Source: Dehalococcoidia bacterium
GTDB taxonomy: Bacteria > Chloroflexota > Dehalococcoidia > Lucifugimonadales > Australimonadaceae
Assembly (NCBI GenBank): GCA_965247635.1
Contig: CBDFHJ010000007.1
Span: 132,630 to 196,629, forward strand
DNA: 64,000 nt
Reading direction: 5' to 3'
Shown: piece after piece, positions 11,310-40,074 of the stretch
Layout: every line of letters starts with the position of its first letter
Position numbering within the stretch: the stretch's first letter is position 1
Notes under the pieces: generated by a model
What the model was told of the DNA's origin: nothing
Seen by the model: only the letters and a program-made list of their open reading frames with translations
The model's database searches: none
Program-made: the position numbers and the translations under genes

Positions 11310-12920
11310 CTAGCTGTACCTAGTTGGGGCCTCAGTTCGAATCCCCCACTGTGGGCCGGACTTGACGAAATCGAGAACCGAGGCCGATTCCCGCTTCACA
11401 CCGTCCTTTGGCATGGGAACGGTGTACGTCAGCGTCGCCTCGTCTCCCACCACCTCGATGCCCTCCACGAAGTTGCGGATGAGGACCTTGCGCTCGGGGA
11501 ACGTCCCCTCTTGCAAGAACTCCCGGAAGTCCGCCACGTACCCCTTGATCTCCTCGGTGGTCGGAAGCTCAACCCTCCGCTGCTCAAGCTGGGTCTCGGC
11601 GTCCTCTCTCGCAGCCTCCAGTTGCTCCTCACGGTGCCTCAGCGAGAAGATTCGGGGCGACAGGACCTCCAACGTCAACTCGCTCGTTTCAAGGGCCTCG
11701 TAGAGCCGCTCAAGACGCTTCCTCACGTCCCTTAGCTCGGCCTCGATGACCTCCAGCCTGCCGGACAGCTCACCGGCCATTGCGTCGATCTCTTCCGCCA
11801 CCAGCGTCACCAGCTCCACGATGGTCTCCTCGGTGAGGATTCGCTCCCGTATCTTCTCAACAATGAAGTCCTCCACCCTGGGGGCGTTCAGGTAGCGGGC
11901 GCTGCACGTCCCCGCTCCCTCCCGGAACAATGTCCCGCAGACGTAGTAGGCGAACTGGCCGCTCTTGGCCCCCTGGCCACTGTAGGGCCTGCCGCACACC
12001 CCGCACTTGAGCAAGCCGCTCAGCAGGAACTTGCTACCCACTCTACCGGGCCTCTGCACCTTCGGGGCACGGTCCCGCATCGCCTGCTGCACGGCGTCGA
12101 ACAGCTCCCTCGACACCAGCGCGGGCCATGCTCCCTCCACTCGCACCGGGTCCTGGGCCTTCTCTACCTTGGTGGTTCTGCCCCAGACGGCGGTTCCGGT
12201 GTAGGCTTCGTTGGTCAGCAGGTAGTGGAGTCCTCCCTTGTACCAGCGCTTTCCCCGGTTGGTGATGCCCCGGTCGTTCAGGGTCCTGCATATCTCCTTG
12301 AGGCCGTAGCCGCTGAGCGAACTCTCGAATATCTCCTTCACCACCGGAGCGGTGGCGGGGTCAACTTCCAGCGTGGGACGCTCCTTCATCCCGTCGCTGA
12401 CCTTCACCCGCCTGTAGCCGAAGGGGGCCTTGGAGCCGAGGAAGAAGCCTCTCGAAGCGGCCTCCCTCATTCCCCGGACAACGTCCTGCGCAAGATTTTC
12501 GCTGTAAAACTCATCGATGCTCCCGATGATGGCCTCCATCAGCTTGCCCGTGGGGGAGTCGTCGGCGTGTTCGGTGATGGAGACCACCTTGACACCCTTT
12601 CTCCTCAGCATGGACTTGAAAGCCACGGCGTGCTCCCGCTTGCGGGTGAACCGGCTGAACTTCCAGACGAGGATGACCTCAAAGGGAGCCTTCGGCTGGC
12701 TGCCCTCCTCGATCATCTCTCTGAACTGGGGTCTGTCCGCCACGCGTCCGCTCCCGGCCTCGTCCACGTACTCGCGGGCGACGGAGTAGCCGTTGGCTCT
12801 GGCGTAGTCCTTGAGCGCTCGCAACTGGGCGGACACGGACAGGTCCACGTCCTGCCGGTCGCTGGATACCCTGGCGTAGAGCGCCGCAGGTGTGAGCGGC
12901 TGTAGGTGCTTCTTCTTCAT
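11310..12920 (-). CDS. large serine recombinase (resolvase domain + recombinase domain + zinc ribbon + coiled coil), copy 1
   Basis: 536 aa. The catalytic N-terminus is ALYARVSSDRQD. The recombinase domain contains GLHYLLTNEAYTG, the zinc ribbon is CGVCGRPY...YYVCG, and there is a long C-terminal coiled coil. Confidence 0.9.
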   Translation of the reverse strand: MKKKHLQPLTPAALYARVSSDRQDVDLSVSAQLRALKDYARANGYSVAREYVDEAGSGRVADRPQFREMIEEGSQPKAPFEVILVWKFSRFTRKREHAVAFKSMLRRKGVKVVSITEHADDSPTGKLMEAIIGSIDEFYSENLAQDVVRGMREAASRGFFLGSKAPFGYRRVKVSDGMKERPTLEVDPATAPVVKEIFESSLSGYGLKEICRTLNDRGITNRGKRWYKGGLHYLLTNEAYTGTAVWGRTTKVEKAQDPVRVEGAWPALVSRELFDAVQQAMRDRAPKVQRPGRVGSKFLLSGLLKCGVCGRPYSGQGAKSGQFAYYVCGTLFREGAGTCSARYLNAPRVEDFIVEKIRERILTEETIVELVTLVAEEIDAMAGELSGRLEVIEAELRDVRKRLERLYEALETSELTLEVLSPRIFSLRHREEQLEAAREDAETQLEQRRVELPTTEEIKGYVADFREFLQEGTFPERKVLIRNFVEGIEVVGDEATLTYTVPMPKDGVKRESASVLDFVKSGPQWGIRTEAPTRYS

Positions 12921-13005
12921 GCTGTCCTCCTTGAGTGGATTGGTTAATCGTCAAGAGATTCGAAATGTGCCCCAGACAATGGCATACTTGTCCAAGATGC
13001 TTGGC

Positions 13006-13641
13006 TTACTCCCTCCCCGGGGGCAACGGGTCCTGCTCACTGGCCAACGCCTGAGACTCCCGAATAGACAGTCCTCGACTGGTCTTGTCTCCCCAAAGGC
13101 TCTTGACGTAGTTGAGCACCTCGACAATCTCTTCGTGGCTGAGCTGGTCCCCAAATGCAGGCATACCGCTCTTGAAGCTCGGATAGCTCGGGTCTTCCAG
13201 TAGCTTCCCGCCCTTGCTGACGATTCGATACAGGAGACCGTCTGAATGGTGCCACGTGTGGCCGTCGCCGTTGAGCGGTGGCGCTGGAAGCGTGCCGTCA
13301 GCCTTTTTGATATGCCAGTCGGGCTGACCTTCGGCAGCGACTCCATGACACACAGCGCAGTTCGCGACGAACAGCTCTCGCCCTGTTGAAGAGGCCAGAG
13401 GAGGAGAGTAGACTCTGCTGTCTGTTGGACTGTTGTCTCCGTTTGGTGAGGGAGAGCAGGCGGTCAACAAGACGAAGACCAGCATCAATGTGGCGAAAGC
13501 GGCGGCGTAGCTGCCTAACCCCACAACGATGGCGTGCAGGCAACAAACTACCGGCACGGTTCCCCGCTTGTGTATCACCGCACCAAACCTGCTGGGGACA
13601 CTGTAGCTTCTGGCTGATTGTGGATGTTTCTTCACACTCAA
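13006..13641 (-). CDS. membrane-anchored c-type cytochrome
   Basis: 211 aa with a TM anchor, a haem-binding CAVCH motif and a distal SGMPAF Met-ligand context. The start is non-ATG (TTG 13641 or GTG 13635), directly after the vapC stop. Confidence 0.6.
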   Translation of the reverse strand: MSVKKHPQSARSYSVPSRFGAVIHKRGTVPVVCCLHAIVVGLGSYAAAFATLMLVFVLLTACSPSPNGDNSPTDSRVYSPPLASSTGRELFVANCAVCHGVAAEGQPDWHIKKADGTLPAPPLNGDGHTWHHSDGLLYRIVSKGGKLLEDPSYPSFKSGMPAFGDQLSHEEIVEVLNYVKSLWGDKTSRGLSIRESQALASEQDPLPPGRE

Positions 13642-14064: not shown

Positions 14065-14071
14065 GGCGGGA

Positions 14072-14559: not shown

Positions 14560-14993
14560 GCGCCTAGACAACGGCAACGGACCGGGTAGGGCTCACACGC
14601 ACAGCCCCCCCTCAGAAGGCGTGAGATGCCAGGGGTCGCTGGCGGTGTCACACCCGTGTACAGGAGATCGCACGGGGCGGCAAGTTGCAGTTCGGGCGAT
14701 TCCGTAGCTGAAATCGGGGTGAATGGGGCATCCTGCTAAATCGGAGCGAGCAATTTGATTCCGGTACTCGTTCCACCCCTACTGGACAGTCGCAGCTACG
14801 AAAGTGGACAAAATGGCAGTGGCGTTCGCGGACGTGATTGGAACATGGACTTTGGACTGCGTGATGGGGCATCGGCAGCTACGGATTGGGGAAAGTGGAA
14901 CATCGACGCGTAAGAGAGGCGGATGGGGTTGGAAGAACCGGAGGTCCGGGTGTTAGCAACCAGCAAAAGTGGGACACATTGGGAGCCGAGAGA

Positions 14994-15980
14994 TCAGGGG
15001 CTGGATGGAGGTCTGGCGAGCTCCCTGAGGGCCCTGTTGTAGCGTCGTCGCCGTTCGGTGGTTTGAGCCTTCACCTCCTTCCTGCGTTGTAGGATCTCTT
15101 GCCGTCTTCCCTTGAGCACGTCTGATGGTGTCACGTTGCCCAGAGCCTTGTGATAGCGCCGGTAGTTGTAGTAGCTGACGAAGGCCGCGATAGCGGCCTC
15201 AAGGTCGGCGGGCAACTCATAAGGCACCTGGTTGACGTCCCGTTTGATGGTCTGGTGGTAGCGCTCCAGCTTCCCGTTGGTCTGAGGGTGGAAAGGAGTT
15301 GCTAGGATGTGCTTGATGCCAACCATCCCCAGGTAGTCCCTGAATGCTCTTGAGACATAGCCTGGACCGTTGTCACTCAGCAGCCTGGTGCGGTCTGTGA
15401 CTGGAACTTGGTCCATGCTGGTCGTGTCCACAGCATCCTGGACCACCTCGATGAAGGAGTCGGCCGTCATATCTTGCTGAAGCCTGTGAGCCAGGATGAA
15501 GCGGGAGTAGTCGTCCATAACGGTGACCAGGTAGTAGTAGCCCCACCCAACCACCCTGAAGTATGAGGCATCGGTGGCCCACATCTGGTGAGGTCCTGTG
15601 GTCTTGAGGTGGTACTCCTTCCCCGCGGCCAACCGCATCTCAGGCCTCTTCACTAGGCCCTCCCTGCCCAGGATACGGTAGACGCTGGACTCTGAGACTG
15701 AGAAGCCCTGGTTGTCGGTGATCCCCGCGGCCAGCTGACGGCAGCTCAGCTCTGGCATCTCCCTGGCTGATAACAGGACTGAGCGTTCTTCCTGAATAGT
15801 GAGACGGTTCCATGGTGGCTGATCGCCTCCTGGTCGGTCCTCAAGTCCTTGTTGGTCTTGGCGTCTGAGCCACCGGTAGTAGGTGCTCTTAGGGATGCCC
15901 AGCTCTCTGAGGACCTTTCGCTTGGGGAGGGGAGACGAGGATACTTTGGTAACTACCTCTGCCTTCTCCGGGGCGCTCAT
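14994..15980 (-). CDS. IS3-family transposase OrfB (DDE integrase core)
   Basis: 328 aa with the rve-type motifs WATDASYF, VMDDYSR, LLSDNGPGY and QTNGKLERYH. Confidence 0.9.
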   Translation of the reverse strand: MSAPEKAEVVTKVSSSPLPKRKVLRELGIPKSTYYRWLRRQDQQGLEDRPGGDQPPWNRLTIQEERSVLLSAREMPELSCRQLAAGITDNQGFSVSESSVYRILGREGLVKRPEMRLAAGKEYHLKTTGPHQMWATDASYFRVVGWGYYYLVTVMDDYSRFILAHRLQQDMTADSFIEVVQDAVDTTSMDQVPVTDRTRLLSDNGPGYVSRAFRDYLGMVGIKHILATPFHPQTNGKLERYHQTIKRDVNQVPYELPADLEAAIAAFVSYYNYRRYHKALGNVTPSDVLKGRRQEILQRRKEVKAQTTERRRRYNRALRELARPPSSP

Positions 15981-16384
15981 CCGCTGGTACCGGTGGCGTC
16001 CTGGGGCATGGGGATGGCCGTTTTTTTGAGACGGTACGCCTCCAGCGACAGATCGGCCACTAGCTCCTTGAGTTCCCCGTTCTCTCGCTTGAGTTGCCCT
16101 ACCTCATGCTGAGTGGCGTCCCGAACCGAGTCACGGGTCAACCTCTCCTTGCCCGCCTCCATGAACTCTTTGGTCCACGAGTAGTAGGAGTGGGGCTTGA
16201 TCCCCTCCCGCCGGCACAGGTCGTTGGCTGTGACCTCGCGGCGGAAGCCCTCCAGAACAATTCGGATCTTCTCTTCGGGGGTGTACTTACGTCGGGCAGC
16301 CGCCTTCACTGTGCGGACGAAAGACCTGGTCTGCTCGCTTCGTTCCTCGGCGGCCTCTGCTTTGCTTACTTCTAATTGGGACAC
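15977..16384 (-). CDS. IS3-family transposase OrfA
   Basis: 135 aa with an HTH plus a leucine zipper. It has an ATGA overlap with orfB, and a -1 shift at the A7 run would fuse OrfA to OrfB. Confidence 0.9.
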   Translation of the reverse strand: MSQLEVSKAEAAEERSEQTRSFVRTVKAAARRKYTPEEKIRIVLEGFRREVTANDLCRREGIKPHSYYSWTKEFMEAGKERLTRDSVRDATQHEVGQLKRENGELKELVADLSLEAYRLKKTAIPMPQDATGTSG

Positions 16385-16495
16385 ATCTGCTCCTTTCTGT
16401 GGGTAGCTCTACCCTCATTTCAGGAGCTCACACCACCCTCCGACTCTCGGGTTTTCCTACCCTTATATGTGTCCCATTATCGCTGACGGTCTACA

Positions 16496-18544
16496 CTTGT
16501 CCACGTACATGGTGTGCAGCAGCGGCTCGTCGTAGCCGGTCTGGAACTTGTCCGCGCAGACCAGGAAGCGGTACGGCTCTTCTTGTATCTTGTCGGCTAT
16601 CAGGTTCGATGAGAAGCCGTTGAGGGACGCCTCGGTTACCTTCGTCCCTGCGTATTCGTGCTCACCGGAAAAGGCGACGATTGCCTGGTATGGACTCTTG
16701 CGCTCTGCCAAGTAGTCTTGGATAGCGTGGTAGTAGCGGATGGCGCGCTCGATACTCCCTGTCACCACCATGGCCCTGGCCTGCCCGCCGACCTTCTGAA
16801 GGCCGATGACCTGCTCGTGGAAGTGGTCCACCATGATCTCGGACTTGAGGCGGATGGCATGATCGTTGTTCTCAACATAGCGCCTCAGCTTCTTCGCCGC
16901 ACGCTTCATATCGAACTCCGGGTCCGCCTCCACCGTCTTGACCAGCCGGTAGTAGCTTTCCACCGGTGTGTAGTGCTTCAGCACGTCTACTATGAACCCT
17001 TCCTCGGTTGCCTGCTTCATGGTGTAGGAGTGGTACGGGACGTGCCTGACCTTGTCTCCCTCCGGGATAGGCCGGCCGAAGATCTCCAGCGTCCGATTCT
17101 TTGGCGTGGCCGTGAATGCGAAGTAGCTGGCGTTGGGCAGCAGCTTCTTGCTCTCGATGATTCTGTTGATCTTGTCCTCGGCGGTCTCTTCTTCCTCTTC
17201 TGCACCGGCCTGTCCCAGGGCCATGGACACCGATGCGGAGGTGCGGCCTCCTTGGCTGGAGTGGGCCTCGTCGATGATGATTCCGAAGCTGTGATTACGG
17301 TGTTCGTCCCCGATGGCGTCCAGAATGAAGGGAAACTTCTGCACGGTGGTGATGACAACCTTCTTCCCATCCTGAAGGAAGGTGCGCAAGTCCTTGGAGT
17401 TCTGGGCATGGCCCACCACGGAGCCTACCTGGGCAAACTGCCGAATAGTATCCCTGATCTGCCTATCGAGAATCCTCCGGTCCGTGACTACTATGATCGA
17501 ATCGAAGAGGGGCTTGCCGCTAACCTCGAACCTAATTAGCTGGTGGGCAAGCCAAGCGATGGAGTTGGACTTGCCGCTTCCCGGAGAGTGTTGGACGAGG
17601 TACCGCTTGCCAACTCCTTCGGCCGGCACATCCGTTAGGAGCCGCCGCACTACTTCCAACTGGTGGTAGCGTGGCCAAATTTGCACCCGCTTCTTACGCC
17701 CGGTTTTGTCATCCTTGGTTTCGACAACTTGGGCGTAGTTCTCAATGATGTCGGTGAGGCCTTCTCGGGTAAGGACCTGCTTCCACAGGTAATCGGTCTT
17801 GATTCCGTTGGGATTGGGAGGATTGCCCGCGCCGTCGTTCCACCCCTTGTTGAAAGGCAGGAACCAGGAACTCTTTCCCTGTAGGTGAGTACAGAACTGC
17901 ACCTCGTGATCGTCGACGGCAAAGTGGACAAGGCAGCGCCCCAGCTCGAAGAGCTTTTCGCGAGGGTTGCGGTCTTCCCTGTACTGCTTAACGGCGTCCG
18001 CTACCGTCTGCTTGGTCAGACTGTTCTTCAGCTCGAAGGTGGCCACAGGCAGCCCGTTGATGAAGAGGCACAGGTCCAAGGCAAGCTGGGTGTTGTCCTG
18101 GCTGTAGTGGAGCTGCCTAGTCACGCTGAATCGGTTCTGCCCGTACTGGACCCCGGCCTTCTCGTTCCCCGGCGACGGTGTGCCGTACATCAGGTCAATC
18201 TGGTGCGGACCGTGCTTGACGCCCTTACGTAGCACGTCAATGGTCCCTCGCTTTGCGACCTCCCCTTGCAGCCGGGCCAGGAACTTGCGCCGCGTTGGGC
18301 TGCCCTGGCCCAGGTCCAGTGGCTCGGCGGCAACGGGCTGGGTGTCGTGGAGGAAGGCGGAGAGTTGGGCCAGGTCTATGCAGTACTCCCGGTCGTAATC
18401 TTGTGGGTCTCCGCCGATCCAGCCTACGCCGTAATTGGCCGGACGTTCTGCCACAGCGCCTCCCTGGGCAGGCTCACACGCATGGCCGGCCATGGCGATA
18501 CAAATGAGCCGCTCAAGTCCCTTCTCAGTGGTATCTGTGGTCAC
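16496..18544 (-). pseudogene. hsdR: Type I restriction enzyme R subunit, 3'-truncated by IS copy 2
   Basis: 683 native codons with a GTG start. It has a PD-(D/E)xK context (LDLCLFINGLPVATFELKN), Walker A (SPGSGKSNS), DEAH (IIIDEAHSS) and QTGYDEPLLHTMYVDK. The reading frame then runs into the IS inverted repeat and stops after 10 codons. Motif VI and the C-terminal domain are absent. Confidence 0.85.
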
Positions 18545-18545
18545 G

Positions 18546-18881
18546 CTATCCCTCTTCCATCTCTTGGATCGGGACTTCTCTCAGTTCACCGGGGCGTATT
18601 TCGTTAATGACAGTGCGAATCTCCTCTATACGCGGCTGGACATAGGGCCATGCCGTGGACAGTAGGACGACAATCGCCAGTCGCCTATCTGTGAGGTTCT
18701 GTTGGTATCGCATATTCTGGTCAGTGGTGATGAGGATTTCGTATCCCTCCTGCTCGGCCTCCTCGACTAGGTCCCCATTACCGAGTCCTGACCATCCTCG
18801 CTCCGCTGCCGTATCCACCGAGTGTCCGTGCAGATGTTCTCGAAGCGGCCGAGGCGTTCCCTGGTCCAATAGAATCCTCAC
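18546..18881 (-). CDS. DUF5615-like (PIN/Mut7-C-like) putative toxin
   Basis: The GTG start at 18881 overlaps the DUF433 stop (GTGA). The sequence VRILLDQGTP...GDLVEEAEQEGYEILITTDQNM matches the DUF5615 pattern. The stop lies 1 nt before the hsdR start. Confidence 0.6.
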   Translation of the reverse strand: MRILLDQGTPRPLREHLHGHSVDTAAERGWSGLGNGDLVEEAEQEGYEILITTDQNMRYQQNLTDRRLAIVVLLSTAWPYVQPRIEEIRTVINEIRPGELREVPIQEMEEG

Positions 18882-19105
18882 GGTTCTACGGAAACCTTGA
18901 CGGACTTCGCCGCGTATTCGAGAACAGCTCTGACCTTCCATTCCTCCACGCCCTCGAACCAATCGAGAAACTGTTCTATGGTAGCGCCGCTCTCAAGGTT
19001 CTCGAAAAGGGCGGATACCGGCACTCTGGTTCCGGTGAACACCCAGGCCCCACTCAGCCTGCCGGGCACGCTCTCGACTGCCGTGCACTTTCCCCAGTCC
19101 GTCAT
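18878..19105 (-). CDS. DUF433-like putative antitoxin
   Basis: The ATG at 19105 overlaps the hsdS stop (ATGA). It has the motif GAWVFTGTRVPVSALFENLESGATIEQFL, which is typical of DUF433. Confidence 0.6.
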   Translation of the reverse strand: MTDWGKCTAVESVPGRLSGAWVFTGTRVPVSALFENLESGATIEQFLDWFEGVEEWKVRAVLEYAAKSVKVSVEP

Positions 19106-20562
19106 ACGGTCACCTCGCTTTCCATTGCCAACTCTTCTGGCCATTCGTCGGGGTGGTGCAGGTCTTCGGCCACACTGTCGGCCAATGGGCCGCCCTCGTC
19201 CATAGGCTCTTCATCGTCGGCTTCGTCCGGCAGCAGCGCCGCCGCCTCGCTCACGTCCAGCTTGCCCGTCACCACGTCGGAGATGAGCCGTGTGCGGTAC
19301 TCCTGAAGCAGTTCGATTTGGCGGCGGGCGCGGGCGATGGCGGCGTAGATGATCGCAGTGGCCTCATCAAGATGCTGGACGATAGCGGCCTGTTCGGAGA
19401 GGGGTGGGATAGGTAGGTGCAAGCTAGTTAGCGTTTCGCGGTTAATCTTTGGCATCGCAACTCTGTCGGATTCAAGGACCGACCAAGCTGTGAAACCTTC
19501 CGAGAGCATCAGCCAGAACAGGTAAACATTTAGGAGTGAATTGCGCGGACGTAGCGGGTACATGTCAGCGCTACATAGGCAGTCGGCCGGGGCCACTAAC
19601 ACTTTTGCCAGTGCCGGGCGAATCTTGCTGTAGATCACATCACCGGCTAGGCAAAAGTACTTACCGCTAATTGCTGCCTGTTCGGAAGCTGTCTCTCTAT
19701 ACAGGAGGCGGCCTGTCTTTGACTCGAGGTGATTTGGAGCGATGAGCAGCATTGATGAATACGGTTCAATTTCTGGATCAACCTGCCCTTCGGCTATGTC
19801 TACTTGGCGGGAAAACCGGGTAGTCTCCCAATGCTCCGGCACGTCGCCGAGCCACTCGACGCCGGAGGGCTTGAGGCGGACGTTGGGGTCAAGGCCGCGT
19901 GTGACGGCCTGGTTGACGATGGCCTGCTTCTCCTCTTCCAGCACCGCGATGAGCTTCCGCTTCGCGCTGACGTACCGCCGGATGCGCCGGTCTACGTGGT
20001 CCAGGTAGCGCACGATTGAGGCCTGTTCGGAGAGATGGGGAAGGGACACCCGAAAATACTTGAGCTGGGCACTGTGGACGTGCATGATGGTGATGCCGCG
20101 CCCCATCAGGGACTTCTGGGTTTGAGCCGAATGACAGTCCAACGAGTAGCCCGCAAACTTCGGCTCCATGGGAACTGTTGGCCGGAAGATGATCAAGTCT
20201 CCACCACAGAAAACTTGGGTGTGCATCAAGTTGACTGCGGATTTGCCAATGTCCTCTATGGTCTCACCTGACGTAGGGAAGAGAACGTCGCCTCTATTGA
20301 TTGGCGTATATGCACTAGCCCTCGCTAGCGAAACATAACTCCGTGTCCGCCTAATGAAGTGGGTGTGAGTCGTGTAAAGGTCCCCATACCGAACACAGGG
20401 TATCCCATCGGGGACCTCGTCATCCTTCGTTCCTCCAGAGCCTTTGGAGAAGACGCCAATCCTTCCAAGTTGGACAACTTCCCAGTGCGCCGGCACGTCG
20501 CCGAGCCAGGGGACAGCAGAGGGCTTGTAGGCGGAGTAGCGGTAGATAGCGTTCGCGTACAC
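19102..20562 (-). CDS. hsdS: Type I R-M specificity subunit
   Basis: 486 aa with two target-recognition halves, each followed by a conserved helix (LSEQASIVRYLD...; LSEQAAIVQHLD...). GC is lower in the TRDs. The start is GTG. Confidence 0.85.
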   Translation of the reverse strand: MYANAIYRYSAYKPSAVPWLGDVPAHWEVVQLGRIGVFSKGSGGTKDDEVPDGIPCVRYGDLYTTHTHFIRRTRSYVSLARASAYTPINRGDVLFPTSGETIEDIGKSAVNLMHTQVFCGGDLIIFRPTVPMEPKFAGYSLDCHSAQTQKSLMGRGITIMHVHSAQLKYFRVSLPHLSEQASIVRYLDHVDRRIRRYVSAKRKLIAVLEEEKQAIVNQAVTRGLDPNVRLKPSGVEWLGDVPEHWETTRFSRQVDIAEGQVDPEIEPYSSMLLIAPNHLESKTGRLLYRETASEQAAISGKYFCLAGDVIYSKIRPALAKVLVAPADCLCSADMYPLRPRNSLLNVYLFWLMLSEGFTAWSVLESDRVAMPKINRETLTSLHLPIPPLSEQAAIVQHLDEATAIIYAAIARARRQIELLQEYRTRLISDVVTGKLDVSEAAALLPDEADDEEPMDEGGPLADSVAEDLHHPDEWPEELAMESEVTV

Positions 20563-20563
20563 G

Positions 20564-21259: not shown

Positions 21260-21269
21260 GTTGCTTTAC

Positions 21270-27509: not shown

Positions 27510-27596
27510 ATGATCGACACGCTGATACTGGACTTCGATGGTGTCATCATCGATTCGGAAATGCCCGAGTTTGAAGCGGTGCACGCAATTAACTGA
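27510..27596 (+). pseudogene. remnant of a HAD-hydrolase N-terminus
   Basis: The 28-codon ORF MIDTLILDFDGVIIDSEMPEFEAVHAIN has a perfect HAD motif I and then stops. It is a gene fragment at the edge of the low-GC block. Confidence 0.4.
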
Positions 27597-27609
27597 AGCG
27601 GCTGACCTC

Positions 27610-28233: not shown

Positions 28234-28249
28234 GCGTTATTCATTATCG

Positions 28250-29065: not shown

Positions 29066-29179
29066 GTCCTAGAGACGTCGGCTCGCGGATGGCTAGGCGG
29101 CTATCGTTGGCTTCATGGTGAGGACGCGGTTCAGCCCGATGTCCAGTGAAACAACCAAGAACTAAGGGAATGGGAGCGA

Positions 29180-29629: not shown

Positions 29630-29685
29630 GTTCCTTACCCGTCGAGGGGCTCGGAGGCTTCCATTCCCAGTTTCCAGGAGTTGCC

Positions 29686-30402
29686 ATGAAAGAGGAACCT
29701 ATAGCGCTGGACGTGTGGGAAGAGATGGCTGAGTTATATGCAGCACGCGTTGAAACGAAGGCCCACAACGCCTTCTATAACTGGCCGGCAATACGCACTC
29801 TGTTGCCCCCCGTCGAAGGAAACCGGGTGCTCGACGCTGCCTGCGGACCGGGAGTTTTCGCCGAATGGCTAGTAGACGGAGGCGCGGAGGTTGTTGGTTT
29901 CGACGTCAGCCCTAAGATGGTAGAGATAGCCGAAAGACGTCTTCAAGGCAAAGCGCGAATCGTCAAAGCCGACTTCGACCAGCCGCTTGACTTTCTTGAG
30001 ACGGGTTCGTTTGACTTGGTGGTTAGCTCATTGGCTCTAGATTACGTGAAGGACTGGGACCCTATATTCAGGGAGTTCTCCAGGGTGTTGCGACCATCTG
30101 GTCGGTTCGTATTCTCAGTCGGACACCCATCTGACGAGTTCTACGAACACCATTCCGAAGGCAACTACTTCGACGTAGAACAAGTCGATATGGTATGGAC
30201 CGGATTCGGCACGCCTTTTACGGTGCCGTACTACAGACGCTCACTTGGCGCAATGCTAGACCCGGTGCTCGGCGCAGGCTTTACACTCGAGCGCTTGCTT
30301 GAACCCAGACCGGTCGAGGAATTCAAAGACCTAGACCCTGGAGATTATCAAAAGTTGATGAAACAACCCGGATTCATATGTCTTAGTGCGGCGAAACCGT
30401 GA
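29686..30402 (+). CDS. class I SAM-dependent methyltransferase (type 11)
   Basis: The start was set at ATG 29686 after AGGAG, because the upstream part of the track ORF overlaps the NUDIX gene. Motif I is VLDAACGPGVFAEWL. Confidence 0.7.
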   Translation: MKEEPIALDVWEEMAELYAARVETKAHNAFYNWPAIRTLLPPVEGNRVLDAACGPGVFAEWLVDGGAEVVGFDVSPKMVEIAERRLQGKARIVKADFDQPLDFLETGSFDLVVSSLALDYVKDWDPIFREFSRVLRPSGRFVFSVGHPSDEFYEHHSEGNYFDVEQVDMVWTGFGTPFTVPYYRRSLGAMLDPVLGAGFTLERLLEPRPVEEFKDLDPGDYQKLMKQPGFICLSAAKP

Positions 30403-30446
30403 AAGGGAGTGGAGGCACGGATCGAGGAGATCAGGGTCGCTCAAGT

Positions 30447-31151
30447 ATGAAGAAGTCAAGAGCATCTGTTCGTGCCAAGGCGGACAAGATCCGAGATTTT
30501 CGGTGTAAGAATTTGATCGCCGTCATGGAGAATCCCGATGACATAAGAAACATCGGAACCATTATCCGCAACGTCAATGCGTTGGGCGTTGAAAAGGCCT
30601 ACATTGTCACCTCTCATGAGTCTTTGCCTGACGACTGGCAGGAGATGCGCGGTCGTTCGAAGCTGAACGCCGTATCGGCATCCGGTATCAAATGGAGCTT
30701 CGTTAAGAAGTTTGAGGACACAGAAAGTTGCTTAGCGCACTTGGAGAAGAATGGCTTCGTGTCTGCCGTAACCTCACCACATACGAAGGGTCGTAAGAAC
30801 GTCGAATTACACAAGGGTGACTACACTAAGTACAAGAAGCTGGCAGTCTGGTTCGGGAATGAGGTAACTGGCATCAGCAAGCTCGCGCTCGAGAAAAGCG
30901 CGCTGTGTATCAACATACCCATGTTCGGAATGATCGAAAGCCTGAATCTCGGTACTTCTTCAGGCATTGTCTTCTACGAGATCACGAAACAACGGAGAGA
31001 ATTTCAGTTCAGACTCAAGGAGAAACGAGTTGTAAAGAGGCAATCGCAAAGCGCGCCCCAACAGTTTATTGAAGCCGACCCTGCTACGCGTCGCCGCTTG
31101 ATTCAGGCAGCCGAGAGTGAACGGGGTTCTAGTCGTGCCAGGAATGCCTGA
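30447..31151 (+). CDS. SpoU/TrmH-family RNA 2'-O-methyltransferase
   Basis: It has SPOUT motifs (IRNIGTIIRNVNALGV; AVWFGNEVTGIS; IPMFGMIESLNLGTSSGI). The start is uncertain (30399 or 30447). GC is low. Confidence 0.7.
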   Translation: MKKSRASVRAKADKIRDFRCKNLIAVMENPDDIRNIGTIIRNVNALGVEKAYIVTSHESLPDDWQEMRGRSKLNAVSASGIKWSFVKKFEDTESCLAHLEKNGFVSAVTSPHTKGRKNVELHKGDYTKYKKLAVWFGNEVTGISKLALEKSALCINIPMFGMIESLNLGTSSGIVFYEITKQRREFQFRLKEKRVVKRQSQSAPQQFIEADPATRRRLIQAAESERGSSRARNA

Positions 31152-31798
31152 CATCGCTGTGACCAATGAGCAGATCGTCGAGTTCGAGCTAGAAGATGAA
31201 GGGTCAGAGGTAGAGTTGGAAGAAGGAGTTCTCGAGACCGAAGCAAGAAACAGCACTGGCAACCGCCGAACGCGGCGGCACTAACATCGAAAGGATGACC
31301 CAGTGAAACTCTGTCCTCGACCTGGATGGGACCTTGTGACTCTCGAATAGCCCGCGACGTATCGATACCGTAACCAGTAAGTTTCATGGCAGTCGCGCAA
31401 TAGCGACAAAGCGTTTCGCTACTCTTGGGCCGTTGGGCTGGGTACGGTGAGCGGCGAGACCGAGCCGTCCGGCTAGTCACTGCTACCCGTGCTCCTCGTG
31501 CTCGCGCTGCGGAGCTAGGGATCCACTTGCTCTCTCCGCTTTCCAGGACTTTCCAATCTCCAAACGGCCCAAGCGGCGTCCCCTCCGTCTCCCTCAACGC
31601 ATCGACTAATCGCCGAAGGTTCGCTTTGGATGTGTCGGGTACGATGTCGAGATCCGCTGCCTGAAGATCTACTCCGTAGGCCTCCATAGCGATTGATCCG
31701 ATCACAATATACTGAACACCCCGATTTTCGAGGATCCTGAGTAACTGGGCCACGTCGGGACTCCTGCTGTCGTATCGAACGCGAGAGAAGTTGTTCAT
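31103..31798 (-). CDS. nucleotidyltransferase-fold protein; the 3' half is doubtful and it may be a pseudogene
   Basis: The first ~95 aa look like a minimal NTase (IVIGSIAMEAYGVDLQAADLDIVPD). The rest is Arg/Ser/Ala-rich and overlaps the SpoU gene end. Confidence 0.3.
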   Translation of the reverse strand: MNNFSRVRYDSRSPDVAQLLRILENRGVQYIVIGSIAMEAYGVDLQAADLDIVPDTSKANLRRLVDALRETEGTPLGPFGDWKVLESGESKWIPSSAARARGARVAVTSRTARSRRSPYPAQRPKSSETLCRYCATAMKLTGYGIDTSRAIRESQGPIQVEDRVSLGHPFDVSAAAFGGCQCCFLLRSRELLLPTLPLTLHLLARTRRSAHWSQRCQAFLARLEPRSLSAA

Positions 31799-33958: not shown

Positions 33959-35977
33959 TTGCTGGTTGCTAACACAGCAGAGACCCTGAACGGCAGAGGG
34001 CAGGGCGGTCCCGAGTTCAAGCGGGCCGTCCGGGACTACGTGCGCGCCTACGTGTGGCGACATGGACGGCCGAAGACAGCTGAGGACCTCGGAGTGTCCC
34101 GCCACACACTCTGGCGATTCCTTGAACGGGGCCACATGGGGCTAGCCGTGCCCTCCGCCGTCCTGAACTCTGCCGGCGGGAGCGTCCGAGCGATTGAGAG
34201 TGCCAGGCAGCAGCTGATCATCGACCTGATGGGCCTCAGACCGGACCCTGCCCTGCGTCCCCTGCGCGAGGGTCTTGAGGAGGCGCTCCTGCTGCTCTGC
34301 GCTACACCTCTGTCTACCGTGGACGAGCTGTCGCGGTTGGGCCGCGTTCCCGCCTCCACGCTGCGAGAGCGGCTGGAGAAGCTCGCCAAGCGGGGGTTGG
34401 TGAACTCCGCGCCGCACCATCTGAGCGTGTTGGGGCCTCGCCCGCTGCGCCGGTACTTCCCAACGGAGAAGGGCGTCATCGCCGGGGGAGTAGCCACCAA
34501 GGGCGAGGCGCACATGCTGCGGGCCTACCCGGTGTCGAAACAGTGGGTTCGGCTGTTGGCCGAGCGGCTGGACGCCGTGGCTGTGCTCTACCGCATCGCC
34601 GCCACGGTCGCCGACTCTGATCCGCACAACGATCCTATGCGCGTAGACCACTACCGCAAGGGTCCCTACGACATGCTGCTCACCCTGTCCGGGGGCCGCT
34701 CCATCGGTCTACTGCGCCAGGGGCCGACACTATCCACCTCCAACCTCCGCTACCGCATCAGGAGCATCGAGCGGTTGCACAATGCCGAGAGACCCTTTGT
34801 CACCCTCGTACTGACCCACGCAGACCAGGCCACCCGCCGGGCCATCCGCTCACAGGGCGACCCTTCAGAGCACGGCAGGACATTCGCGGCGACGGAGGGG
34901 GAGCTTCTGGCCGGAGACCACAATGGAGTCGTCTGGCAGCAGTGCGGGAGCGGCCTCGGCGACGAGCCTCCCGTGCGGGTCTCCCCCGACGCCAGCCTGC
35001 CCGGCATCCTGGTGTGGGCGGAGCGCCTGTTGGACTCGTCCTACTCCTTCCTCCGCGACATCCCGAAGCCGAGTCCCGGCGCCCTGTACTCCTCCGGCGT
35101 TCAAGCCTCCATGCCGGAACCGTCGCAGCAGCTAGTGCCGGCCCTCTCAGTGCAGCTGACGCGGGCCGACAAAGAAGCCCTCGACCTGCTGGCCGCCTGG
35201 CCCCTGTGCACCCGTGAGCAGCTTGCAGGGCTGATGGGAGGCGTCACCCTGCGTCGGGTCAACCAGGTGCTCCGTTCCCTGAGCCAACACGGTCTCGTGC
35301 GAGCGGACAGCCCCTTGCACATGCTCACCGACGAGGGGCTTACCTACCTGGCCCGCAGGGACCGGGCCGCTGTCGGGCTCACCCTCGACCGGTGGAGCGC
35401 TGAGCCCTCGTACTCGAACCCTGACGTTTACGCAGGGACCGCGCTGCGCACCCTTGCCTCCCAGCTCCGTCATCACGCCGGCGTCACCGGTTTCGCCACC
35501 GCCCTGTCCACCGAAGTCGCCCGCTCTCCACACCACGACCTGTTTGACCTGCTGCCCACCTCCCGCTCCAGCATCGGCTACCGCTACGACTGGACCACCT
35601 ACGTGATACTCCCTGACGCCTCCTTCACCCTGGAGTACCGGGGCCGGTGGCGTCCCTACCTGCTGGAGTTCGAGCGTCGTGCCACGACACCCAAGCGCAT
35701 TCTCGACCGCCTGGAGTCCTACCGCCGGTACTTCCTGAGCGGCTGGGCGGAGCGGGACCACGGCGGATTCCTGCCCCGGGTGCTCTTCGTCTTCGAGACT
35801 CCCGGCAACGAGGATGCCTTCCTCAATGTCGCTGACAGACTGAACGGGCCGGCCATCATCACCTCTAACGCCGAGGCCCTTGCCGAGCGGGGCATCCTGG
35901 GCGATTCCTGGCGTCTCCCGTCACCGCATCCCTCTGATCGGAGGCCGCTATCCTCCCTGGACCCAGTTGCAGAATGA
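33959..35977 (+). CDS. tandem-duplicated wHTH + replication-relaxation-like protein, 5' end replaced by the IS terminus
   Basis: 672-aa ORF. Both halves have a wHTH (LSTVDELSRLGRVPASTLRERLEKLAKRGLV; CTREQLAGLMGGVTLRRVNQVLRSLSQHGLV) followed by a Replic_Relax-like core (ILPDASFTLEY...LLEFERRATTPKRILDRLESYRRYF). The first 5 codons lie inside the IS inverted repeat and there is no ATG start. Confidence 0.55.
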   Translation: MLVANTAETLNGRGQGGPEFKRAVRDYVRAYVWRHGRPKTAEDLGVSRHTLWRFLERGHMGLAVPSAVLNSAGGSVRAIESARQQLIIDLMGLRPDPALRPLREGLEEALLLLCATPLSTVDELSRLGRVPASTLRERLEKLAKRGLVNSAPHHLSVLGPRPLRRYFPTEKGVIAGGVATKGEAHMLRAYPVSKQWVRLLAERLDAVAVLYRIAATVADSDPHNDPMRVDHYRKGPYDMLLTLSGGRSIGLLRQGPTLSTSNLRYRIRSIERLHNAERPFVTLVLTHADQATRRAIRSQGDPSEHGRTFAATEGELLAGDHNGVVWQQCGSGLGDEPPVRVSPDASLPGILVWAERLLDSSYSFLRDIPKPSPGALYSSGVQASMPEPSQQLVPALSVQLTRADKEALDLLAAWPLCTREQLAGLMGGVTLRRVNQVLRSLSQHGLVRADSPLHMLTDEGLTYLARRDRAAVGLTLDRWSAEPSYSNPDVYAGTALRTLASQLRHHAGVTGFATALSTEVARSPHHDLFDLLPTSRSSIGYRYDWTTYVILPDASFTLEYRGRWRPYLLEFERRATTPKRILDRLESYRRYFLSGWAERDHGGFLPRVLFVFETPGNEDAFLNVADRLNGPAIITSNAEALAERGILGDSWRLPSPHPSDRRPLSSLDPVAE

Positions 35978-36403
35978 CAACTGCCGCCGTTCCAGTCACT
36001 TCCTGTAGGGGACGTCCCAGCATGGCTGCTGGGACCCCTTTGGAGGAGTTCTCCAACCTTCATGCCCCTTCCGCCCTCACGATTGCAATTTGGTGCAGAA
36101 CTGATGCGTCAGGATCTCATCGTTGATACGCCGCACACCGCCCATCCCGACCAGCTGTCAGGTACGGCTCCTAGCGAGAACCACCCCGACTAGGGCCTCG
36201 ACGGACCAGTGCTCTGGGGCCTCGGAAGCATGTTGCACCCATGCACTAAAGCAGTTCCCAGGGTTTCCTATAGGGGACACAAGGGCATTCTCTGCACCTA
36301 CCGTGTCAGCCCCCAACAGGCCGAAACGGGACATTTGTTGCAGCGCTCGGAACCCGCAGATCCTGGCGGCGGCTCCTCCCTGTGTCGGTTGAAGATCGGT
36401 TGG

Positions 36404-36438
36404 CCGGTGGTATATAGTAAGACAGCGTACTATACCGG
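36404..36438. promoter_or_regulatory. imperfect palindrome upstream of the RHH gene (candidate operator/promoter)
   Basis: CCGGTGGTATATAGTA-N8-TACTATACCGG has perfect 7-bp arms (TATAGTA/TACTATA) that are also -10-like. It lies 19 nt upstream of the ATG at 36457. Confidence 0.4.
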
Positions 36439-36456
36439 CAGACGAAAAGAGCAACC

Positions 36457-36690
36457 ATGCCCCCAAAGTCGAGAAGCACCGACACCATCACCTTCTCCCT
36501 GCCACCGGAGATGGCCCAAAATCTGCGGCAGGTGGTCAAGGAGGAGGACCGCACCGTGAGCGAGCTGCTCCGGGAGGCGGTCCGCCTCTACATGGAGGAG
36601 AGGGAGTGGCGAAGACGAGAACGACTCGAAAGACTGCAAACTAGACAGACGGGACATGCCCGAACAGAAGGAGGAAAGGCTGATGAATGA
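36457..36690 (+). CDS. ribbon-helix-helix (CopG/MetJ-type) protein
   Basis: 77 aa. The sequence ITFSLPPEMAQNLRQVVKEEDRTVSELLREAVRLYM is a classic RHH pattern. Its stop overlaps the recombinase start (ATGAATGA). Confidence 0.7.
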   Translation: MPPKSRSTDTITFSLPPEMAQNLRQVVKEEDRTVSELLREAVRLYMEEREWRRRERLERLQTRQTGHARTEGGKADE

Positions 36691-38326
36691 CCGACTTGAT
36701 CTGATACCGGCGGCCCTCTACGCCAGGGTCTCCAGTGACCGCCAGGACGTGGACCTGTCGGTGGCGGCCCAGCTCCGCGCGCTCAGGGACTATGCCGAGA
36801 GGAACGGCTACCTGGTCGCCCGTGAATACGTGGACGAGGCCGAGAGCGGACGCACCGCCAACCGGCCCCAGTTCCGAAGGATGCTGGATGAGGCCGCCAA
36901 GCCGGAGGCTCCCTTCAAGGAGATTCTCGTCTGGAAGTTCTCTCGCTTCACCCGAAAGCGCGAGCACGCCGTCGCCTTCAAGGCCATGCTCCGGCGCAAG
37001 GGCGTGAGGGTGGTCTCCATCACCGAGCACGCCGACGACTCCCCCACCGGCAAGCTCATGGAGGCCATCATAGAGTCTGTGGACGAGTTCTACTCGGAGA
37101 ACCTTGCGCAGGAAGTTGTCAGGGGTATGCGAGAGGCCGCTTCTCGCGGCTTCTGGGTGGCCAGCCGGGTGCCCTACGGCTACCGGAAGCTCATGGTGCA
37201 GGACGGGGCCAAGAAGCGTCCCACCCTCGAACCCGACGCGGCCACCGCTCCCGTGGTGGAGCGCATCTTCAACATGGCCGAGGCGGGCAGGGGCATCCTG
37301 GACATCACCCGCACCCTCAACGACGAGGCATCGCCAACCCCACCGGCAGGCTCTGGTGCAAGAACGGCGTCCACATCATCCTCAGGAATCCTGTCTACAC
37401 GGGAACCTTGGTCTGGGGCACTGATTCCAAGGACAAGGCCGAGCCGGTGCGGGTGGAGAAGGCCTTCCCCGCCATCGTCTCCAAGGCCCAAGTTCAAGCG
37501 GGTGAACCGGAAGCTGCGCTCCCGCGCTCCCAGGAGGACTCATCCCCGCCGGGTCGGGAGTTCCTACCTCCTCAGTGGCCTGGTCAGGTGCAGGGCGTGC
37601 AACCGGGCGCTCAGCGGCCAGGACGCCAAGAGCGGCCGGTTCGCCTACTACGTCTGCCAGTCGATCATGAAGCGCGGCAAGGACGCCTGCGAGACTCCCA
37701 GGCTCAACGCACGCCGTTTCGAGGAAATGGTGGTGGGGAAGATCCGGGAGAACGTGCTCACCGAGTCCAACATCCGCGAACTGGTGAAGCTGGTGGACGA
37801 GGAGATGGACGGCATCGCCCACGAGCAGCGCCAGCGGCTGGAGACCGTCGAGGCGGAGCTTGTGGACGTGAAGCGCAGGCTGGACCGGCTCTACAACCTG
37901 GTGGAGACCACAGACCTGGACGTTGACGACTTCAAGCCCCGCATACGCGAGCACAGGGAGCGGCAGGAGAGGCTTGAAGCCACGGCGGAGGAGGCGAGGG
38001 CGATGCTCTCCCAGCGCAAGGAGGTCCTGGACGATGTGGAGACCATCACGGCCTACGCCCAGGACCTGAGTGTGTTCCTGAACGAGAGCGAGCTGACGGA
38101 GCGCAGGGCATTCATCGAGAGTTTCGTGAAGGAGATCATCGTCATGCCCGACAACGCCGTGGTGCGCTACACGATTCCGATGTCCGACGACAGCCCCATC
38201 CCGGGGAGAGATGCCGAGGAGATGGCCCTGCACGCCCCGGTTCTGTCTACCGTCAAGTTTGGTGGAGCAGGGGATACTGGCAAAAAACTTGCCGATTTCC
38301 CAACCTCGTCATCCGGAGAGGGTTGA
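36683..38326 (+). CDS. large serine recombinase, copy 2, with an internal out-of-frame segment (compensated double frameshift)
   Basis: Paralogous to 11310-12920 (ALYARVSSDRQD, YYVCQ zinc ribbon, coiled coil). Codons at about 37328-37492 read ASPTPPAGSGARTAS..., while another frame gives the expected GIANPTGRLWCKNGVHIILRNPVYTGTLVWG. Confidence 0.8.
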   Translation: MNDRLDLIPAALYARVSSDRQDVDLSVAAQLRALRDYAERNGYLVAREYVDEAESGRTANRPQFRRMLDEAAKPEAPFKEILVWKFSRFTRKREHAVAFKAMLRRKGVRVVSITEHADDSPTGKLMEAIIESVDEFYSENLAQEVVRGMREAASRGFWVASRVPYGYRKLMVQDGAKKRPTLEPDAATAPVVERIFNMAEAGRGILDITRTLNDEASPTPPAGSGARTASTSSSGILSTREPWSGALIPRTRPSRCGWRRPSPPSSPRPKFKRVNRKLRSRAPRRTHPRRVGSSYLLSGLVRCRACNRALSGQDAKSGRFAYYVCQSIMKRGKDACETPRLNARRFEEMVVGKIRENVLTESNIRELVKLVDEEMDGIAHEQRQRLETVEAELVDVKRRLDRLYNLVETTDLDVDDFKPRIREHRERQERLEATAEEARAMLSQRKEVLDDVETITAYAQDLSVFLNESELTERRAFIESFVKEIIVMPDNAVVRYTIPMSDDSPIPGRDAEEMALHAPVLSTVKFGGAGDTGKKLADFPTSSSGEG

Positions 38327-40019: not shown

Positions 40020-40074
40020 AGCTTCACCTCCCGTTACGCAACACAGTGGCCGGTATTCTACTACACGGGATGGT

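Follow-up and report, generated by a model that had tools for sequence, protein, structure and literature searches.

Large serine recombinases (LSRs) such as the phiC31, Bxb1 and A118/LI integrases have their domains in the order Resolvase, Recombinase and zinc ribbon, and the sites of phage LSRs span about 50 bp, with dyad-symmetric arms and a central dinucleotide that sets polarity. LSRs also serve SCCmec, whose tandem elements share a chromosomal site and lie between repeats of the integration-site sequence; the ccr genes form an adjacent, co-transcribed pair in one element, and the target is the end of a protein-coding gene. Among the systems closest to the locus described here are the ssrA islands of Dehalococcoides, integrative mobilizable elements in tandem at the 3' end of one RNA gene (McMurdie et al. 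2011, PMC3146451). According to the sections of that paper used here, a serine recombinase of about 540 aa, DsiB, lies beside the att site, and its 3' end overlaps att, so that the flank determines its stop codon; the authors proposed accretion and remnants mobilizable in cis, and SCCmec-type islands with CcrA/CcrB are mentioned. In the tandem accretion of IMEs, ICEs and CIMEs, the incoming element integrates into an att site belonging to an element already in place, which creates a chimeric internal junction (Guedon et al. 2017, PMC5704250). The parts of that review drawn on here add that one partner often decays, that transfer of the whole tandem is possible, and that serine-recombinase IMEs mostly disrupt dispensable genes.

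The window, i.e., the whole 64,000-nucleotide stretch of DNA that was analysed, contains a 27-kb island ending in two LSR genes. Judged from its sequence, this island probably represents two different mobilizable elements side by side at one att site, in a decayed tandem (accretion) array scrambled by insertion sequences. The two families of putative integrative mobilizable elements are common in Dehalococcoidia, and the stacked pattern is most likely ordinary in this bacterial group, without a new invertible or composite device. The two LSR genes face outward with accessory DNA between them, as the earlier note had claimed, and both reading frames were confirmed:

11310..12920, minus strand: recA, A-type LSR of 536 aa, ORF intact; its last ~13 codons are flanking DNA past the crossover
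36656..38326, plus strand: recB, B-type LSR of 556 aa with a compensated double frameshift; its last ~20 codons are flanking DNA

The start of recB lies at 36656, or at 36683 if the second ATG is used. In BLASTP, the two proteins shared 283 of 510 aligned positions (55%; E = 0), and all four long identical stretches quoted previously were present in the alignment. They have in common the motif YARVSSDRQ, which presumably contains the nucleophile serine. An SCC-like element with two recombinases, for which adjacent co-oriented genes of the CcrAB kind would be expected, does not fit, the genes being divergent and 23.7 kb apart.

Pfam searches identified the N-terminal resolvase domain PF00239 in both recA (E 4e-33) and recB (E 1.9e-33). 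In recA it is followed by Recombinase (PF07508) and then by the zinc beta-ribbon Zn_ribbon_recom (PF13408), both in frame. In recB only the zinc ribbon is in frame after the resolvase domain, and PF07508 was seen only in the other frame of 37327-37491 (E 3.9e-9; 55% to recA residues 218-271). Compared with its two closest paralogues, recB has lost one nucleotide after 37326 (GGG to GG) and gained one at 37490 (A to AA); the two indels compensate each other, and 164 nt of the Recombinase domain are therefore out of frame. This makes recB an LSR by descent, broken in its present form and probably inactive; recA looks intact. The frameshift pair is absent from the earlier sequence-only reading.

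The deduced att sites of both families are about 50 bp long and consist of two 19-nt arms flanking a 12-nt spacer (5 nt, a central GG and 5 nt); at tRNA targets, GG/CC corresponds to the final two bases of the acceptor stem. One arm of each element's att site is held in the 3' end of its LSR gene. Three sites were expected in the window, two outer ones centred on 11353 and 38264 and an internal hybrid near 24045. All three are present, with half-sites of both the element and the target kind:

11329..11378, plus strand: site L, outer att junction of the recA element, found by site scan, GCCTCAGTTCGAATCCCCC-ACTGT GG GCCGG-ACTTGACGAAATCGAGAAC
24020..24070, minus strand: site M, internal hybrid att junction, read on the minus strand as GTTCTTGATTTTGTCCAGT-TTGGT GG GCCTA-AGTTGACGGTAGGCAGAAC
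38240..38289, plus strand: site R, outer att junction of the recB element, GTTCTGTCTACCGTCAAGT-TTGGT GG AGCAG-GGGATACTGGCAAAAAACT

Target-type half-sites aligned as about 5 bp shorter than element-type ones (19 vs 24 nt to the centre), a difference in line with what is reported of attB and attP geometry for LI integrase. The right half of site L corresponds, in reverse complement, to the recA 3' end, and homology to the C4 and C10 paralogues ends 41 nt before the recA stop. The left half of the site has the look of a tRNA 3' half, with T-loop, T-stem and acceptor, but the rest of a tRNA is missing; Rfam and tRNA searches gave no match at the site. A half-site of this outer type follows 21 of the 79 A-type LSRs in other genomes, and a 1812-nt contig from run X15 covers 9577-11388 with zero mismatches. 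Site M has the chimeric structure of an internal junction in a tandem array: its left arm is the distal arm of the A element, and beyond the core, its right, B-type distal arm agrees with the reverse-complemented recB 3' arm in 17 of 19 positions. Contigs from run X1 have loose ends in the middle of site M, at 24041 and 24046, where their sequence shows different arms. At site R, the outer half resembles the first ~16 nt of the reverse-complemented 3' end of tRNA-Ala and then diverges; no tRNA was found at the site, and this half matches the T-arm-like half-sites elsewhere poorly. No target repeat longer than a few bases was found.

Further copies of both families occur in the same genome, which has 13 loci at least 40% identical to recA. 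Five B/C-type LSR 3' ends directly abut convergent tRNA 3' ends (Val, Leu, Met, Ala and Ala), and a sixth lies ~90 bp from tRNA-Arg. The recB locus (33987-38265) is 82.4% identical in DNA over 4291 bp to C10:8665-12911, a module of relaxase, two small ORFs and LSR that ends at tRNA-Val. The recA DNA is 76-81% identical to only two other copies. The edge of the A-type element on C10 is formed by tRNA-Val(tac). Next to it comes a 19-nt arm, which the LSR 3' end of the element, at a distance of 17 kb, repeats perfectly in inverted orientation. In all, 18 att-like sites obey the one grammar, and eight of these, including site M, are hybrids of the A arm TTGGTGGGCCTA with a B- or C-type distal arm. 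In addition, convergent LSR pairs on C4 and C10 show the order recB-type arm, core and reverse recA-type arm. By the identities of the recA and recB loci, the two LSRs belong to two different element families.

Each element encodes its own LSR, placed differently in the two families. In the B/C type (recB), the gene reads toward the core from the TTGGT side and comes to lie beside, and convergent with, its tRNA or tRNA-like target; in the A type (recA), it reads toward the core from the GCCGG side and comes to lie at the end of the element far from the target. Because the two families thus have the LSR gene on opposite sides of the core, the order A then B would give outward LSRs, and the reverse order, B then A, would give convergent pairs. 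The hybrid junction would join the distal arms of A and B through the core. We infer the order of element entry, and also that both elements may have entered one original target, composed of the left half of site L and the right half of site R. The previous suggestion of two elements inserted head-to-head holds in that two elements are supported; however, the data point to a tandem array with the shared hybrid junction M, not to separate head-to-head sites.

The same architecture was found in other Dehalococcoidia genomes, where A-type LSRs at 79 loci are 79-98% identical to the recA protein. The A-type distal arm adjoins real tRNAs at two of these loci (L021 and L065) and B/C-type distal arms in at least nine of the 17 distal arms found, and convergent LSR pairs occur at 19 of the 79 loci. 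Two genomes have the same three sites, spanning 18 kb in G041 and 22 kb in G042. In G041, the counterparts of L, M and R lie at 194439, 203297 and 212474 on one strand, with a recA-type LSR (97% aa identity) facing left and a recB-type LSR (77%) facing right. The layout in G042 is the same, with LSR identities of 88% and 83%, and sits in an array with further elements. In both genomes, the right-hand element carries the relaxase, o35974, o36209 and the LSR in the order found in the window.

The gene content of the interior (PIN protein, restriction-modification, insertion sequences, methyltransferases and relaxase) bears out its earlier description as accessory DNA:

13006-13641, minus strand: cytochrome c gene
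13642-14872, minus strand: three-gene module with a PIN protein, DNA 96-97% identical to C4:19846-21088 and C9:199908-201114
14950..16495, minus strand: IS-A copy 1, IS3 family, 1546 bp, without target-site duplication
16463..23737, minus strand: type I restriction-modification cargo with hsdR, a small ORF, hsdS, a trypsin-like peptidase gene, hsdM and an HTH gene
24156..27473: terminal region of an A-type element, with a DUF4166 gene, the gene at 24948-25337, IS-B and remnants
25687-26971: IS-B, within the A-type terminal region
27538..31798, plus strand: low-GC cargo with an unknown gene, two SAM methyltransferase genes, a SpoU-type methylase gene and an unknown minus-strand gene
31940-32429, plus strand: IS-C fragment, cut by IS-A copy 2
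32430-33975, plus strand: IS-A copy 2, inverted relative to copy 1, without target-site duplication
33959..36559, plus strand: transfer module of the recB element, with a Replic_Relax-type relaxase gene and two small ORFs

Among insertion sequences, the island thus has a 1.5-kb IS3-family element in duplicate, a single further IS and a fragment of an IS. Contigs that omit the cytochrome c gene, joining 12931 to 13642, exist in runs X15 and X19. Truncation of hsdR at the IS removed its C-terminus and left PADLOC profile positions 116-650 of 1029. Site M polarity suggests that the restriction-modification cargo may belong to the recB element as its distal part and now lie in inverted orientation. 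The gene at 24948-25337 is 70% identical in amino acids to the gene that neighbours the distal arm in the A-type element of C10, and the remnants at 27126-27473, which match DNA flanking other att sites, may be traces of a third element. Besides its LSR, the B element encodes a relaxase of PF13814 (E 4e-8), whose homology to paralogues begins at 33987. In the window, the A element keeps its LSR but has lost its relaxase, which is present in the A elements on C4, C10 and G041. No mating-pore or coupling-protein family was among the Pfam matches of the 58 ORFs scanned, some of which received no assignment.

The GG cores of L and R lie on the plus strand and that of M on the minus strand; the att sites of the array thus share one orientation in G041 and G042 but not in the window. 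Site M is wrongly oriented here, so that an array can be proposed only together with one further event. Recombination between inverted IS-A copies may later have inverted the central ~16 kb (16496-32429), with the hybrid junction, and brought deletions as well. The segment carrying site M does sit between inverted IS-A copies, and in a paralogous copy at C9:199.9-207.6 kb, which is 94-98% identical, the orientation of the PIN module relative to the M region is opposite to that in the window. The hybrid site has canonical polarity in that copy, likewise in C4. Un-inverting the segment places all B-element genes on the plus strand and the A-element genes that change strand on the minus strand. 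The IS-A copies lack the swapped target duplications predicted by a simple inversion; no target duplication was found at any of the three IS-A copies in the window, and genome-wide an exact test detected one at only nine of 43 left ends. The second half of IS-C was not found near IS-A copy 2, and deletions must therefore be invoked. The source is a metagenome-assembled genome, and a stretch bracketed by inverted repeats of 1.5 kb might have been assembled in the wrong orientation or might vary within the population. Considering the inverted hybrid junction between inverted IS copies, the frameshifted recB, the truncated hsdR and the A element without a relaxase, the array has apparently decayed.

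The flanking genes, which had been said to look core, fit that description on the left, where 5485-11125 was syntenic in all three relatives fetched. The right flank is not clearly core: the region at 38.4-42.8 kb showed no synteny with the conserved transketolase gene (42962-44992) in the five relatives searched, and the GC content is 0.567 at 38-39 kb. No empty site (attB) was found in the relatives compared, all from other genera with broken synteny, no circle (attP) was recovered from the relatives' genomes or the metagenome contigs examined, and a metagenome scan with the left flank gave 0 matches.

Alternatively, the island might be a patchwork of at least four unrelated element remnants, joined by IS rearrangement or assembly error, in which the outward LSRs are coincidental and no A-plus-B array ever existed. 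We regard this as unlikely: the 39 full-length IS-A copies of the genome, mostly without target duplications, and the extra remnants at 27126-27473 would suit it, but the exact complementarity of an A-type LSR, a B-type LSR and an A/B hybrid junction between them would then be a coincidence, and the same combination is intact in G041 and G042. The polarity of site M is wrong for both LSRs as placed, which also favours a patchwork; nevertheless, a single inversion restores strand coherence, and the C9 paralogue keeps the un-inverted linkage of PIN module and M region. That the two LSRs flip the 27 kb as an invertible cassette between inverted sites is scarcely credible, although the LSR genes themselves are inverted. 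The GG cores of L and R are direct, on the same strand, and recombination between them would therefore delete, not invert; moreover, the arms come from two different site families, recB has no in-frame Recombinase domain, and the G042 layout is part of an array with further elements.

The deletion that L and R could undergo would excise a circle, as expected if the 27 kb moved as one composite element, its att site forming on the circle by joining of the recB and recA 3' ends and its LSR genes becoming the termini after integration. The circle junction of such an element (recB arm, core and reverse recA arm) is present in the convergent pairs on C4 and C10 and at the 19 loci elsewhere, but these are more simply explained as B-then-A arrays. 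In C10, the partner LSR and the C-type copies resident in the genome are 96-97% identical, whereas the A-type LSRs are only 78% alike; therefore, the pairings arose independently, and the C10 A-type element has its own distal arm at tRNA-Val(tac). The joined outer halves of L and R form an imperfect palindrome (ATCCCC...GGGGAT), and whole accreted tandems transfer in other elements, as stated in the part of PMC5704250 used here. Against this stand the internal hybrid junction in the window, the frameshift in recB and the failure to find either circle or empty site in the genomes and contigs searched, so that we consider a composite element distinctly improbable. Contrary to both the composite and the cassette proposals of the earlier note, each LSR belongs to an independent element with its own att arms.

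Large serine integrases are not known to accept, as a partner for attP, a site in which a P-type arm remains, and repeated accretion would therefore need relaxed site choice. A speculative and rather unlikely possibility is that the A and B/C LSR families regularly land on each other's element ends (attP pairing with a site that retains one long, element-type arm), that alternating arrays might grow at tRNA-like palindromes, and that an A/B pair might leave as a composite circle whose att site is the overlap of convergent recombinase genes. If true, the 19 convergent pairs among 79 loci and the eight hybrid sites would be products of cross-family, polarity-coded stacking and not chance neighbours.

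The array reading places this locus close to the ssrA islands, with which it shares the bacterial class, the tandem stacking at RNA-gene-type 3' ends and the overlap of the LSR 3' end with the att site. In the sections of PMC3146451 used here, however, the ssrA islands target the tmRNA gene with a 20-bp direct repeat, whereas the targets here are tRNA or tRNA-like 3' halves with a repeat of a few bases at most; their module includes another, small serine recombinase (DsiA) along with ParB, Mom and others, in place of the Replic_Relax relaxase and small ORFs found here. The opposite gene-to-core polarity of two families, with outward and convergent pairs, does not appear in those sections. The internal chimeric att junction and the decayed partner resemble the accretion of IMEs, ICEs and CIMEs, but the accretion examples in the parts of PMC5704250 consulted involve tyrosine integrases, whereas here both partners are LSRs at tRNA-like targets. 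Like SCCmec, the locus combines LSRs with tandem elements at one site, yet each of its elements has a single LSR, and the two lie at the array's opposite ends. The domain order and the ~50-bp sites with a central dinucleotide are those of phiC31, Bxb1 and A118/LI; unlike these phages, the elements here are mobilizable islands, with an att arm inside the integrase coding sequence and sites apparently reused for stacking.

The two large serine recombinase (LSR) genes that the earlier note placed at the ends of the 27-kb island proved to be real, and all the identical stretches it quoted were found in the alignment of their products (55% identity over 510 aligned residues, E = 0). The recombinase genes and the three att-like junctions of the window, each with a GG core, are as follows.

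11310-12920, minus strand: recA, A-type LSR gene, 536 aa
GG at 11353: site L, consisting of a tRNA-3'-half-like arm, the core and the recA arm
GG at 24045, minus strand: site M, a hybrid junction
36656-38326, plus strand: recB, B-type LSR gene, 556 aa
GG at 38264: site R, consisting of the recB arm, the core and a short tRNA-Ala-like stretch

RecA carries the Resolvase, Recombinase and zinc ribbon domains, that is, the full LSR set. RecB as assembled showed no Recombinase-domain match because its gene differs from its two closest paralogues by two mutually compensating frameshifts: one nucleotide is missing after 37326 and one is added at 37490, each within a short homopolymer. When translated in the alternative frame, the 55 codons between these indels matched PF07508 (E 3.9e-9) and were 55% identical to recA residues 218-271. 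Judging from its sequence, recB as assembled is probably inactive.

A tblastn search identified 13 LSR loci in the genome (at least 40% identity), five of which abut a convergent tRNA gene, 3' end to 3' end (Val-gac, Leu-tag, Met, Ala-tgc and Ala-ggc), and one further locus ends approximately 90 bp short of tRNA-Arg. Specifically, the recB locus (33987-38265) showed 82.4% identity over 4291 bp to a relaxase, small-ORF and LSR module on contig C10 that ends at tRNA-Val(gac), and this homology stops 61 nt ahead of the recB stop codon. Besides recA, only two A-type copies are present (76-81% DNA identity), and their homology to recA stops 41 nt ahead of its stop codon. Therefore, the last LSR codons are flank-derived in both families.

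Based on alignment of the LSR 3' ends and a genome scan, a common site pattern was identified, consisting of two 19-nt arms, each separated by 5 nt from a central GG. In B/C-type sites, the LSR 3' end forms the left arm and is followed by TTGGT GG and the tRNA in reverse complement; this GG pairs with the final two C residues of the acceptor stem, and the discriminator A and the CCA are contributed by the element. In A-type sites, the LSR 3' end forms the right arm on the other strand, with GG GCCGG ahead of the arm. At the target end of the A-type element on C10, the sequence after tRNA-Val(tac) is ACCAA and then a 19-nt arm, which recurs as a perfect inverted repeat in the arm within the LSR gene of this element, 17 kb off. 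Thus, the A-type LSR lies distant from the tRNA and is directed away from it; the B/C-type LSR adjoins the tRNA and is directed toward it. Because the distal arm was found at tRNA-Val(tac), we discarded the notion that recA-type elements have the 3' ends of other LSR genes as their targets. Long direct repeats of tRNA ends were found as boundaries for none of six elements, as expected for serine recombinases. C10 also has a B-type distal att arm 5.6 kb from one contig end (C10:969435-975074), with its LSR/tRNA-Val counterpart 12.9 kb from the C10 start (C10:1-12911), so the contig ends may adjoin within one element of approximately 18.5 kb.

Under this polarity, a B/C-type element followed along the DNA by an A-type element would have convergent, overlapping LSR genes, and the reverse order would have LSR genes facing outward with a hybrid junction in between. 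Convergent overlapping pairs are present on contigs C4 and C10; the convergent partner on C10 is 96-97% identical to resident C-type copies, and this pairing is therefore recent and independent. The hybrid junction, which reads A distal arm, TTGGT GG GCCTA and B/C distal arm, occurs eight times in the genome. In the window, 17 of the 19 positions in the B-side arm of site M agree with the recB arm in reverse complement. The outer halves of sites L and R are not tRNAs, and an Rfam search of both outer junctions returned no match at E up to 1. The left junction was confirmed by a 1812-nt contig from the public sequencing run X15. With sites L, M and R, the window sequence fits the pattern of an A element followed by a B element.

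A search for related loci yielded 79 A-type LSR loci at 79-98% identity, nearly all in Dehalococcoidia MAGs. The LSR arm was followed by a T-arm-like half-site as at site L (21/79), a convergent LSR gene (19/79), a B-type distal arm without an LSR (8/79), an element-type arm without an LSR match (6/79) or other sequence (17/79); the arm was not found by the search pattern used in 6/79, and the contig ended at the junction in 2/79. Distal arms were found upstream in 17 of the 79 loci, and at least nine of these adjoin B/C-type distal arms. Real tRNAs adjoin the distal arm in two loci, L021 and L065, and a tRNA-Ala-like fragment does so in a third, L025. At L065:1219-2697, from another Dehalococcoidia MAG, the A-type element adjoins the last of 16 tRNA genes crowded in 1.5 kb.

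The window-like arrangement was found intact in two complete chromosomes, G041 and G042. In G041, a recA-type LSR (97% aa identity) points leftward and a recB-type LSR (77%) rightward across 18 kb, and its three sites (194439, 203297 and 212474) share one strand; no tRNA was found in its 19.9 kb. G042 has the same arrangement over 22 kb (LSRs 88% and 83%), followed by another A-type element. The right-hand element of both chromosomes contains a relaxase, two small ORFs and an LSR, ordered as in the window. The left-hand G041 element encodes a separate relaxase, different from the right-hand one, and the search gave no relaxase match in the left-hand element of G042.

In the window, the polarity of site M is opposite to that of sites L and R. 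In a paralogous region on contig C9 (94-98% identical), the PIN module is oriented as in the window and the M region is reversed; the hybrid site polarity is canonical there and likewise on C4. The window segment with site M is flanked by two inverted copies of IS-A (14950-16495 and 32430-33975). Un-inverting 16496-32429 brings the HTH, hsdM, hsdS and hsdR genes to the plus strand, beside the relaxase gene and recB, and the methyltransferase genes to the minus strand, beside the PIN module and recA. From this arrangement we infer a later inversion of the segment carrying site M, with the caveat that, in an assembly from a metagenome, a segment flanked by 1.5-kb inverted repeats can be placed in the wrong orientation. 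Against it, the two IS-A copies lack target duplications, swapped or otherwise; such duplications were uninformative as proof of inversion. Also against it, the other half of IS-C is absent, so deletions occurred too. Genome-wide, IS-A is present in 39 full-length copies (99.5-100% identity), including one at 1810-3356 of the window. By an exact test, only 9 of 43 left ends had a matching 8-10-bp target duplication, and one left end pairs with a right end on another contig (C10:319483 with C7:386694), which points to frequent IS-IS recombination.

The accessory character of the interior, which the earlier note had claimed, was borne out by the gene content between recA and recB. The island contains a cytochrome c gene, a three-gene module including PIN, a DUF4166 gene, three methyltransferase-type genes, a Replic_Relax relaxase and a type I R-M system whose hsdR ends at PADLOC profile position 650 of 1029, exactly at an IS. 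Its IS elements are the two inverted IS-A copies (IS3 family, 1546 bp), IS-B and the IS-C fragment. Among 16 island and flank proteins, the type I R-M system was the only PADLOC detection apart from a weak LmuA-like match (E 2.8e-6) for a trypsin-like peptidase encoded between hsdS and hsdM (20564-21259). The cytochrome c gene (13006-13641, between recA and the PIN module) is missing in the C4 paralogue and in contigs of runs X15 and X19, which have a 25-nt filler in its place; it is a recent cargo gain within the integration module.

The genes outside the island had been described as looking core; their order was kept in the three relatives compared for the left flank, and was not kept for the right flank, up to 42.8 kb. 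No usable empty site was found for the left flank in 41 genomes (none of the same genus, 64-77% identity) or for the right flank in 5 genomes (none of the same genus). Synteny on the left flank extends as far as the F420-type oxidoreductase gene; in one genome, G010, it runs on into genes located 120 kb away in the source genome.

Public reads were searched as short Logan contigs over stretches of up to 20 kb, less than the length of the island. A metagenome scan with 24 nt of the left flank gave 0 matches. The summed depth of the LSR, IS and R-M parts was 100 to 10,000 times the flank depth, so such parts are widespread across the samples. Contigs of run X1 stop at the centre of site M and have other arms there. 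Contigs of X15 (depth 2.8-4.6, near the flank depth of this organism) and X19 join 16495 to 24040/24049, thereby linking the end of IS-A with the middle of site M; on one side these joints comprise only 25-26 nt, and they may derive from other organisms.

Several other features lie near the locus. A conserved stretch of approximately 110 nt with predicted stems (11216-11330), upstream of the F420-type oxidoreductase gene, has two further copies (C9:~211950-212060 and C8:~86390-86500, 73-79% identity) and gave no Rfam match (E up to 1); this stretch may represent either a cis-regulatory RNA of no known family or a repeat. A single ORF at 8980-10353 encodes an ArsR-type HTH fused to a cation-diffusion-facilitator transporter with its dimerisation domain. 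At 39533-39572, inside an ORF (39375-40169), there is a 32-40-nt repeat that also occurs elsewhere in this genome and in many copies in G003, a genome of another genus (95-100% identity). At 49641-51038, tRNA-Ser(gga) is directly followed by a P4-type tyrosine integrase gene (Arm-DNA-bind_3, Phage_int_M and Phage_integrase), which probably marks where a further island begins, one that integrates by a different system.

Neither the composite element nor the recombinase-mediated invertible cassette proposed in the earlier note was supported. The island is decayed mobile DNA of a known kind rather than a new mechanism, and its sequence is that expected of a tandem accretion of integrative mobilizable elements. 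For the window itself, this is mostly clarification. More broadly, the orientation of adjacent LSR genes gives the stacking order of two mobilizable-island families in these Dehalococcoidia, many of which are sponge-associated or marine, going by record titles. The deduced 50-bp sites can provide exact island boundaries in hundreds of metagenome-assembled genomes, as well as attP/attB pairs that can be tested for a group of LSRs that has received little study, enzymes of interest as genome-engineering tools.

Tandem accretion is known for tyrosine-integrase elements (PMC5704250). It has also been proposed for the ssrA islands of Dehalococcoides, which use serine recombinases and whose DsiB likewise takes its last codons from the flank (PMC3146451). 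Added here, with no priority claimed, are a site grammar spelled out in full and the finding that the two LSR families have opposite polarities, which explains both the outward and the convergent pairs.
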